DNA from: a virus
Taxonomy: Duplodnaviria; Caudoviricetes
Reading direction: 5' to 3' (one strand)
DNA: 56,408 nucleotides
Virus record (IMG/VR): IMGVR_UViG_3300032156_000011
Coordinates: 1 to 56,408 of that record
Numbering within the stretch: the first letter of the stretch is position 1; each line of letters opens with the position of its first letter. The notes under the pieces are model-generated. The model made no database searches and was not told where the DNA came from. It worked only from the letters and a program-made list of their open reading frames with translations. This document shows positions 44,579-45,988 of the stretch, piece by piece. Made by a program: the position numbers and the translations under genes.

Positions 44579-45988
44579 CTACTTGATCACAACCGACCCG
44601 CTGCAAAGCGTGCCGTCCATGATTCCGGCAAGCAAGCGGTCTTTGTTCTCGGACAGGTACGCCTCATAGTCATCTATCCCCATGCATCGTGGGAAATCAG
44701 TTAGCATGTGAATCTGTACGTGCCCCTGTCCCCGCGCCGACTGCCCGCCGACTACCCCGCCATTGTCGGCATAGTAGGCCAGCGCAGCCCCTAGCGCCCC
44801 CCGCGTCAGGGGGGTGGTGTAGGGCGTCATGGTCAACTCGACATACACTTGCGACCCCTTGACCAGGGTTTCGTAATTGTAAATCATCTGGCCCTGACCG
44901 TCCGGCGTCGCCATCCGCGTCCGGGTCACTGTGTCCAGCATGTCGAAAACGCTGGTCTGAGCCTGCGCCGTCTCGCGCAGCGAGTCCGGCAGCGCATCGG
45001 CATTCTCTGCGCACACGATCCAAGCGGACACCTTGAGCCTGCTTTCCCCCAGGTCAAAGAGTGACGTTGTTCCGCCAAGCAAGTCCAGGGACGGGTAGGA
45101 TACGCGAATCTCGCCCGCCAATCTGAACGCACCAGCAGGTTCCTTTGCCCCTTCAGCAATGTTTCCGCCATTGTAAAAAATGCCGTCCATTCCCACGGCC
45201 AGCGGCCCCTCGCCCCGCGCCTTCGGATCGATACCGAGCGCATTGCACAAGTGAAGCCAGGACGGTTCACGTACCAACTGGTGACGGATGCTGTTGACGC
45301 TGATCGTGGGTACTTTTAGCACGATCTGGTCTTGCGGTACAGGGAACTGGTCGCCAGTGAAGTGGGCCACGACCGTATTTTGCTCTGCCCATTCCCCGCC
45401 CCTGCCAGACTTTTCCATGTACTCGAATGATTGCTCTTTGTTGGTGGTGTGCCACAATCTCGCCAGGGTAGTAATGTCGCGGGTGTTGGATACCATGACA
45501 GCGAGCATTTGGTACTGTGCGCTCGGCGGCAGCGTCCAGAACATGGCAATCTGCGCGTCGAATTGGGATGGGTGAATACCTAGTTTCAGGTCATTCGTCA
45601 CGATCGACCAGAAAGCGTGCAAGGTGTGGCAGCGAGCGGCAGCGGTTTGGACGCGGTTTTCCAGCATCCGGTATCGTTCCATGCCGCTGAAAAGGCCCTC
45701 CCCGTCTTTCGAGTTGTAAATGTCCACGAGCAGGCGAATGTATGCGGCGGCCAGCCATTCCGGGACGCTCAAGCGACTGAGCAGGTCGGCCACACTTTCG
45801 GGCATTAGGTTCTGCTGGCAGAGCGCGTCAACCAGGTGGGTGTAGACAGGCGTATCGGTCGCTTTGCGGGTGACGAACTGCTTTTGACGATTGAACGTCA
45901 ACACGTTGGACTTTTTACCAGTCGCCGGGTCGTGGTGACTGATACCCTCCAACGCTGTAAGAACCAATCCAAAACTTTGACTTTGCAT
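44579..45988 (-). CDS. csf2: Type IV Csf2 (Cas7-like) with inserted Cas11-like helical domain, 469 aa
   Basis: LTALEGISH, VPTISVNSIRHQL, FYNGG, YPSLDLLGG, YETLVKGS, G-rich loop VGGQSARGQGHV. Confidence 0.85.
   Translation of the reverse strand: MQSQSFGLVLTALEGISHHDPATGKKSNVLTFNRQKQFVTRKATDTPVYTHLVDALCQQNLMPESVADLLSRLSVPEWLAAAYIRLLVDIYNSKDGEGLFSGMERYRMLENRVQTAAARCHTLHAFWSIVTNDLKLGIHPSQFDAQIAMFWTLPPSAQYQMLAVMVSNTRDITTLARLWHTTNKEQSFEYMEKSGRGGEWAEQNTVVAHFTGDQFPVPQDQIVLKVPTISVNSIRHQLVREPSWLHLCNALGIDPKARGEGPLAVGMDGIFYNGGNIAEGAKEPAGAFRLAGEIRVSYPSLDLLGGTTSLFDLGESRLKVSAWIVCAENADALPDSLRETAQAQTSVFDMLDTVTRTRMATPDGQGQMIYNYETLVKGSQVYVELTMTPYTTPLTRGALGAALAYYADNGGVVGGQSARGQGHVQIHMLTDFPRCMGIDDYEAYLSENKDRLLAGIMDGTLCSGSVVIK

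Follow-up and report, generated by a model that had tools for sequence, protein, structure and literature searches.

A Cas11 domain inside Csf2 (Cas7), the backbone subunit of a type IV-B-like module without an array, in a tailed phage

Subtype IV-B modules of the CRISPR (short palindromic repeats that are clustered and regularly interspaced)-Cas type IV systems are described as a set of csf1, cas11, csf2, csf3 and a cysH-like gene lacking a CRISPR array (PMC8175902, PMC7038947). The IMG/VR virus record IMGVR_UViG_3300032156_000011, the 56,408 bases of which were analysed as a whole and are referred to here as the window, encodes on its minus strand an operon with the gene content of this subtype except for a separate cas11 gene, while the product of its csf2 gene is 469 residues long and holds about 180 residues that ordinary Csf2 proteins do not have. 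The question raised by this locus is therefore what these additional residues are and where the small subunit of the module is to be found. An earlier note, made from the sequence, had proposed that both questions have the same answer, namely that a Cas11-like small subunit is inserted into Csf2 (Cas7), which would fix the ratio of backbone to small subunit and may be a distinct type IV architecture. The evidence assembled below agrees with this proposal, and we put the probability at roughly 0.85 that a whole Cas11 domain has been spliced into the Csf2 hairpin turn of an array-less IV-B-like phage module.

Within this type IV-B-like module, which has no array, the backbone subunit Csf2 (Cas7) is the 469-residue protein. 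Its open reading frame (ORF), as well as the peptide strings quoted in the earlier note, is present in the translation of positions 44579-45988 of the minus strand. The PADLOC model typeIV_Cas7 matches residues 218-453 with an E-value of 3.3e-29, and hhalign places the protein onto residues 42-289 of the 294 residues of a canonical IV-B Csf2 (Prob 99); Pfam and NCBIfam do not recognise it, and phmmer against the PDB sequences returns a chance match only (1tvs, E 1.1). The AlphaFold2 model, built with 43 homologues, has a predicted local distance difference test score (pLDDT) of 88.8 and a predicted template modelling score (pTM) of 0.82, and comprises strands at residues 4-12 and 34-40, nine helices between residues 50 and 193, a strand at 221-227 and the usual Cas7 elements. 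When this model is compared with experimental structures by Foldseek, the matches are Cas7 chains of type IV-A (8rc3_D and 7xg1_F, E 2.7e-6 to 4e-6) and the IV-B Csf2 chain 7jhy_a (E 5e-5). No viral protein with the whole architecture, and none at E <=0.001, is found by Foldseek in BFVD, where the best matches (A0A0N7CBP1, A0A8S5MXU3 and A0A510E872, one of them annotated as a class II dehydroquinase) are 137-155 residues long, with template modelling (TM) scores by target of 0.50-0.68 and E-values of 0.019-0.71. The ATG at 45988, which lies 5 nucleotides past the TAA stop of the upstream csf1-like gene and is preceded by the Shine-Dalgarno-like AAGGGGGA, agrees with the start positions of the homologues, while the mechanical ORF list also offers a longer GTG start at 46144.

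The position of the additional residues is given by the way in which the protein aligns to Csf2 proteins that do not have them. The PADLOC Cas7 profile matches all begin at residues 208-223 of the protein and at profile positions 37-43, such that the first 40 or so profile positions must be split from the rest. These positions are recovered at the N-terminus: when compared by hhalign with a profile of 15 insert-less Csf2 relatives from the cluster-representative search described below, residues 3-40 cover positions 6-44 at 37% identity (E 4.3e-5), and residues 220-469 cover positions 44-286 (Prob 100, E 1.1e-62). This two-part alignment places about 180 residues (41-219) exactly at a hairpin turn that measures 2-6 residues in ordinary Csf2, and thus bears out what the earlier note had claimed for positions 45323-45868 (residues 41-222), both on the size of the insert and on the shortness of the hairpin in typical Csf2. 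The turn in question belongs to the β-hairpin between the first strand and helix α-1 of the Cas7 fold. The alignment of the N-terminal segment succeeded only with the profile of close insert-less relatives; hhalign of the N-terminal 46 columns against the N-terminus of one canonical Csf2 gave a Prob of 0.3. A hidden Markov model (HMM) of the segment matches the N-termini of eight of the 15 insert-less Csf2 proteins. Among the 43 homologues the mean pairwise identity is 0.57 in the N-terminal Csf2 segment and 0.54 in the Cas7 core, compared with 0.25 in the first linker, 0.45 in the Cas11 domain and 0.19 in the second linker.

The N-terminal segment carries a conserved S-H-H-D motif and an invariant asparagine, N28 (45905-45907), a few residues before the insertion point. 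In a weak alignment N28 falls on Asp42 of the Csf2 of the IV-B complex 7JHY, and the insert-less relatives also have a nearly invariant asparagine at this position. The 7JHY paper names Asp42 as a putative catalytic residue; it belongs to the stretch that follows the first strand and is close to where a target strand runs (PMC7937560). This weak alignment suggests that the site of insertion may be turned towards the Cas11-holding side of the backbone, and likewise that this branch may not cleave RNA via the residue equivalent to Asp42.

What the insert is was decided by comparison with the Cas11 proteins of the closest operons with an insert-less Csf2, which are found in two viral contigs from IMG/VR (loci L020 and L021). 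In both loci a separate ORF of 155 or 130 residues, respectively, ends where csf2 starts and matches type IV Cas11 models (4.6e-5 and 2.6e-7); csf3 is present in both surroundings, and a CysH-like gene in L021. In BLASTP, 119 residues of the insert align to the Cas11 of L020 at 36% identity (E 8e-26). The hhalign comparison of the insert profile with this protein gives a Prob of 99.8 and an E-value of 1.5e-28, and its 125 columns extend over residues 16-140 of 155; for the Cas11 of L021 the corresponding hhalign values are Prob 98.4 and E 7.8e-15. A conspicuous G-L-F-S-G-M-x-R-Y motif is common to the insert and the stand-alone Cas11. Since the alignment extends over nearly the whole of a stand-alone Cas11, the insert is a complete Cas11 domain (residues 66-190, approximately) flanked by linkers. 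Judged from these sequence comparisons, the insert is homologous to stand-alone type IV Cas11, as the resemblance to IV-B Cas11 stated in the earlier note had implied.

Family models and structure prediction point in the same direction. When the insert is scanned alone, six typeIV_Cas11 models of PADLOC match (best 5.7e-4) and no other family among the 5027 does. In a set of 14 inserts (that of the window and those of related viral loci), six match Cas11_1_IV at E <=0.01, and all five PADLOC families matched by any of the 14 are Cas11 families. Scanned singly, five of ten other inserts match Cas11 models, with the best values for L008 (4.2e-9) and L003 (1.2e-6). The model of the insert alone is all-helical (pLDDT 87.5, pTM 0.86), as the earlier note had expected of it, and in the structural comparison with Cas11 that this note had proposed, a Foldseek search of 350,542 PDB chains, the first rank is taken by 7jhy_g of the IV-B complex (prob 0.94, TM 0.58 by target), with a root mean square deviation (rmsd) of 3.5 Å over 117 columns and 18% identity. 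All other PDB matches of the insert model have a prob of <=0.06 and an rmsd above 11 Å.

If the insert takes the place of the small subunit, a separate cas11 gene would not be expected, and none was found in the window. A six-frame search of the 56,408-base genome with the model Cas11_0_IV, which at the loose threshold used also matches in seven of 14 control genomes, returned only the insert (1.8e-4), and in a six-frame search with the insert's own HMM nothing beyond the insert was better than E 4.5. The latter HMM is sensitive enough to detect the stand-alone Cas11 proteins of L020 and L021 (2.9e-38 and 3.7e-18). The 81-residue ORF downstream of csf2, a 74-residue ORF upstream of csf1 and three further upstream ORFs have no match in PADLOC; the small ORFs nearby show either helix-turn-helix (HTH) matches or none, and the statement in the earlier note that the operon has no cas11 gene of its own holds. 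The same applies to related phages: 17 viral loci were retrieved, two of which hold just the 3' part of the gene, and no separate cas11 is seen in any of the 15 full-length ones. Neighbouring genes frequently overlap at their ends (L009 and L010 are examples), leaving no room for it.

The layout is a conserved, distinct architecture of a large, mostly phage-borne gene group. A word-indexed search yielded 257 relatives of the 469-residue protein, and the 119 listed besides the query (452-497 residues, 96-100% query coverage) all have the insert as judged by HMM. In each of the 15 full-length viral loci the csf1-like gene is followed by csf2::cas11 with csf3 downstream, and in 14 of them a cysH homologue adjoins csf2::cas11 or csf3, none being matched in L001. 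The order of cysH and csf3 varies, with L006, L012 and L013 having csf3 directly after csf2::cas11 and cysH further downstream; in L012 and L013 cysH lies 3 kb away and encodes 387 residues. An exhaustive search with the core (residues 223-469) against 1.84 billion cluster representatives gave 257 matches, which include insert-less Csf2 proteins of 274-326 residues; among the best 150 representatives 107 have the insert, about 15 are full-length insert-less Csf2 proteins and the rest are fragments. Of 100 full-length representatives with the insert, 90 have a match to the HMM of the Csf2 N-terminal segment that lies upstream of the Cas11 domain; in the remaining ten the N-termini are truncated (three) or visibly diverged (seven). 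The layout is thus an insertion throughout and not an end-to-end fusion.

A survey of homologues and a phylogeny of the core had also been suggested in the earlier note, and the survey describes the distinct type IV architecture that it considered possible. In a quick maximum-likelihood tree of the Cas7 core, in which 51 insert-bearing rows selected across the E-value range and 16 insert-less rows were included and fragments were excluded, the insert requires one state change (0 of 500 shuffles were as low). A branch with a support of 95, starred in the tree, unites the insert-bearing set with 11 insert-less relatives and excludes more distant IV-B Csf2 proteins. This tree is read most simply as a single origin of the insert within an IV-B branch that is largely virus-borne, although such an origin is weakly supported and not proven.

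Searches by tblastn found a relative in none of 50,697 GenBank phage records, and in 72,556 plasmids the one match was to a canonical IV-B locus that is distant. A relative is encoded by eight contigs (L022-L029, 1.7-38 kb) from the representative genomes of 185,579 species in GTDB. All eight are from metagenome-assembled genomes (MAGs), and the closest relative is 65% identical; six come from MAGs of Chloroflexota, which makes this the probable host phylum, although contigs assigned to a bin may be phage DNA.

The window is a complete tailed-phage genome with direct terminal repeats, and the IV-B-like operon lies between the portal and capsid genes, in the order csf1-like, csf2::cas11, two winged-HTH genes, cysH-like and csf3 (Table 1).

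Table 1. Features of the window and domain map of the Csf2::Cas11 protein
Feature	Positions	Strand	Description or evidence
large terminase	51236-52597	minus	PHROG 2.8e-29
portal	48941-50947	minus	PHROG 2.7e-11
csf1-like, 241 aa	45997..46719	minus	directly upstream of csf2; probable diverged Cas8-like large subunit
csf2::cas11, 469 aa	44582..45988	minus	type IV Cas7 backbone subunit with internal Cas11 domain
Csf2 N-terminal segment, residues 1-40	45869..45988	minus	first strand, S-H-H-D motif, N28, first hairpin strand
N-terminal insert linker, residues 41-65	45794..45868	minus	two short helices; outside the stretch aligning to stand-alone Cas11
Cas11 domain, residues about 66-190	45419..45793	minus	BLASTP, hhalign, PADLOC, Foldseek
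C-terminal insert linker, residues 191-219	45332..45418	minus	least conserved part; pLDDT dips
Csf2 core, residues 220-469	44582..45331	minus	second hairpin strand, RNA recognition motif (RRM) palm, thumb-like hairpin, C-terminal helices
small ORF, 81 aa	44335..44577	minus	paralogue of the 75-aa ORF, probable winged-HTH; not Cas11
small ORF, 75 aa	44123..44347	minus	winged-HTH protein; not Cas11
cysH-like, 262 aa	43277..44062	minus	PAPS (3'-phosphoadenosine-5'-phosphosulfate)-reductase / ATP-pyrophosphatase fold; PF01507, phrog_2302
csf3 (Cas5), 248 aa	42534..43277	minus	PADLOC Csf3_0_IV
major head protein	38944-40068	minus	PHROG 4e-26

Two of the neighbouring genes are readily assigned. The csf3 product matches PADLOC Csf3_0_IV at 1.6e-28 and the NCBIfam model TIGR03116 (cas5_csf3) at 1.7e-14, the latter with 54 bits and under the curated cut-off of 140, and the cysH-like product matches PF01507 above the Pfam cut-off (6e-17) as well as phrog_2302 (1.4e-25). 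The cysH-like gene is a hallmark accessory of type IV-B, and loss of the catalytic cysteine is a described trait of CasCysH. Besides an array, subtype IV-B lacks Cas6, a DinG or RecD helicase and adaptation genes. Neither Cas6 nor DinG could be assigned among the operon genes by PADLOC, the sole Cas6 row being a weak stretch (0.032) inside Csf2.

The 241-residue protein encoded upstream of csf2 has no match in Pfam, NCBIfam or PADLOC, and its family shows no match by hhalign to one canonical Csf1. Four of 13 relatives scanned match PADLOC Csf1_0_IV, however, with a best E-value of 6.1e-5, and these matches, together with the position of the gene, make the protein a probable diverged Csf1. A feature search of the ESM Atlas placed it nearest to clusters of Eco47II-type restriction endonucleases (0.94, 189-194 shared features); this lead was not used, given an Atlas model with a pLDDT of 0.32, structure matches with TM scores below 0.35 and no support from sequence tools.

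For the pair of small ORFs between csf2 and cysH an HTH assignment is indicated. The Pfam matches of the 75-residue ORF are to HTH families and weak, none of them reaching the cut-off (the best is HTH_23, E 0.0011), and in PADLOC it matches the CARF3/CasR models in their HTH portion (5.9e-5); the 81-residue ORF has no match in Pfam or PHROG, and both ORFs are similar by BLASTP to the same ORF of L002. The latter (L002:7418-7693) is a single HTH ORF that follows csf2 in the same place as the pair in the window. In L004, L005 and L008 the csf1-like ORF extends upstream in frame into an HTH-like segment, and it is probably from these extensions that the matches to WYL, CasR and Csa3 models come, which appear in the family tallies with two members at most. 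As it is found either between csf2 and cysH or upstream of the csf1-like gene, the HTH is a recurrent but movable component of the operon.

No CRISPR-like repeat family was detected in the 56,408 bases, in which the five repeat families seen are tandem and without unique spacers, and an Rfam search of the whole window gave no match. Two of the tandem repeats are duplications within genes: one of 73 nucleotides (90% identity, 40651-40796), at the 3' end of a 604-residue gene downstream of csf3, shows its duplicated peptide in the ORF translations, and one of 96 nucleotides (93% identity, 48782-48973) lies in the N-terminal part of a 244-residue ORF, at the place where this ORF overlaps the end of the portal gene. 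A long GCC-rich tract with copies 9-15 nucleotides apart occupies 10640-10886, and a 21-nucleotide repeat occurs in four copies at 23426-23530.

Several observations weigh against a Cas11 domain that functions within Csf2, and they have to be set against the alternatives that they would favour. The similarity of the insert to canonical Cas11 beyond its own branch is faint. Profile searches of the PDB give the Cas11 of 7JHY E-values of 0.23-0.57, level with chance matches to nitric oxide synthase; the Foldseek match to 7jhy_g has an E-value of 0.96; and the identity of 7jhy_g as a Cas11 chain is itself deduced, from the 143 residues modelled in it and from the make-up of the entry, with six chains of Csf2 and five of Cas11. 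Half of the ten other inserts that were scanned singly do not match any PADLOC family at E <=0.05. The Cas11 of a canonical IV-B locus on a halo-archaeal plasmid (Actinarchaeum halophilum, NZ_CP071309.1), used as a single sequence or as a 17-sequence profile, gave a hhalign Prob of 0.3 with the insert, this clade being too distant for such a test. Taken at face value, the lack of significance in the PDB searches would suit a helical domain that has no relation to Cas11 and looks like it by chance or on account of its composition. This is very improbable, since the BLASTP and hhalign matches (8e-26 and 1.5e-28) are to proteins in the position of cas11 that are themselves matched by Cas11 models, and since Cas11 families alone, among the 5027 PADLOC models, match the inserts. 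Even less credence is due to an artefact, by which the long ORF would result from mis-assembly, from a frameshift that merged two genes or from an end-to-end fusion of Cas11 and Cas7 behind an unrelated leader. The ORF is unusually long and the GTG at 46144 would extend it further, but the same architecture recurs in independent cluster representatives (107 of the best 150) as well as in 15 viral loci, the leader is the N-terminus of Csf2 itself, and the ATG at 45988 has both a Shine-Dalgarno-like motif and the agreement of the homologues in its favour.

The remaining alternative accepts that the insert derives from Cas11 and holds that it now serves in docking or in regulation, with the CysH-like or HTH proteins as possible partners, such that no minor filament is formed. 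The faint similarity to canonical Cas11 would fit with such a change of role, as would the additional HTH components missing from canonical IV-B, namely the two ORFs here and the N-terminal extensions of the csf1-like protein in three loci. We nevertheless consider it unlikely: residues 16-140 of the 155 of a stand-alone Cas11 are kept collinear at 34-36% identity, the Cas11 domain is conserved nearly as well as the Cas7 core (0.45 vs 0.54), and none of the 15 full-length viral loci has a cas11 gene, which fits with a domain that stands in for it. Three further points count against the preferred reading more generally, in that the Csf1-like protein of the window matches no Csf1 model, the branch uniting all insert-bearing proteins is weakly supported (Shimodaira-Hasegawa approximate likelihood-ratio test, SH-aLRT, 66), and assembly, RNA binding, stoichiometry and expression are predictions. 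A two-copy complex prediction of the 469-residue protein scored 0.00 in both runs, which were made without controls, and bears neither way on self-assembly.

The Cas11 domain is held in the Csf2 hairpin by the two variable linkers (41-65 and 191-219), and the protomers would be expected to polymerise on RNA as ordinary Csf2 does. Each protomer could then set its own tethered Cas11 domain on the interface with a neighbour, at the target-binding face, so that one polypeptide would build both the major (Cas7) and the minor (Cas11) filament, at a ratio of backbone to small subunit fixed at 1:1 by the covalent link. Csf3 (Cas5) and the Csf1-like protein would cap the end of the filament, and the CysH-like enzyme may act on or together with the complex. 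Guide-RNA sponging and CysH-mediated modification have been proposed as roles of IV-B (PMC8175902), and the complex encoded here might similarly keep small RNAs sequestered or offer the CysH-like enzyme a bound nucleic acid.

Taken together, these steps would describe a phage-specific IV-B branch in which one polypeptide yields both filaments and the tether speeds the assembly, in fixed proportion and during infection, of a complex of three proteins (plus the CysH-like enzyme and an HTH adaptor) that soaks up host guide RNAs or directs the CysH-like enzyme to nucleic acid. This combined picture is tentative and, as a whole, rather doubtful; were it true, the module would be a phage counter-defence or genome-marking device and not an immune system. 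The biological role and the complete complex architecture of IV-B, a class 1 CRISPR-Cas subtype, are still called unclear (PMC8175902, PMC13676074). For this question a Cas11 domain inside Csf2 would be informative in several ways. Because the small subunit has been kept as a domain after the separate gene was gone, it would seem indispensable for IV-B activity; a large natural clade with Cas11 hard-wired in Cas7 would mean that a 1:1 ratio is tolerated, and the Csf2 hairpin after the first strand would have to be within reach of the Cas11 site. With three effector proteins instead of four, structural and biochemical studies of the system would also be simpler. Uncultivated phages, likely of Chloroflexota, hold much of the sequence diversity near this Csf2, and annotation pipelines would overlook the internal Cas11 and could label such loci incomplete.

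Subtype IV-B itself is known, and no description of Cas11 inside Csf2 was found in the literature searched. The supplementary locus tables of Pinilla-Redondo et al. 2020, and those of Makarova et al. 2025, may contain variants of this kind. The module resembles canonical IV-B in having Csf2, Csf3, a CysH-like enzyme and probably a diverged Csf1, in lacking a CRISPR array and in being borne by a mobile element. It differs in that Cas11 is a domain inside the Csf2 hairpin and not a protein of its own, that cysH precedes csf3, that two HTH genes have been added and that the module stands amid phage head genes. The small subunit of 7JHY, the IV-B complex of Mycobacterium sp. JS623 (Zhou et al. 2021), has the fold closest to that of the insert. 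In this structure six Csf2 subunits form the backbone on RNA and five Cas11 subunits form the belly, each on one Csf2-Csf2 interface (PMC7937560), whereas the covalent link would impose 1:1 in the protein described here.

The closest relatives by Cas7 core are the phage-borne IV-B modules of L020 and L021, which likewise come from viral contigs, belong to the same starred clade and share 33-38% identity in the core; their Cas11 proteins are 28-36% identical to the insert of the window. In both, unlike in the window, cas11 is a gene of its own that ends at the start of csf2, and Csf2 has the short hairpin turn. IV-B modules with a separate cas11 have also been reported in archaeal viruses (PMC10541130; bioRxiv 10.1101/2023.08.02.551345).

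Fusions of effector subunits are known from other subtypes. A Csf1-Csf3 fusion occurs in IV-E (PMC7038947), and in Cas7-11/gRAMP (III-E) and Cas7-11i (III-I) three or four Cas7 domains are fused end to end with Cas11 between domains (PMC12669027). Membership in the Cas7-11 group was considered and rejected for the 469-residue protein, as residues 1-40 and 220-469 align once to a single Csf2 and thus form one Cas7 core; the PADLOC matches of the Cas7 part are to type IV and not to type III Cas7 models. What the protein has in common with Cas7-11 and Cas7-11i is that Cas7 and Cas11 are parts of one polypeptide, such that backbone and small subunit are co-translated. Unlike the single-molecule Cas7-11 effectors, it has one Cas7 domain that carries Cas11 inside its own fold and presumably still has to polymerise.

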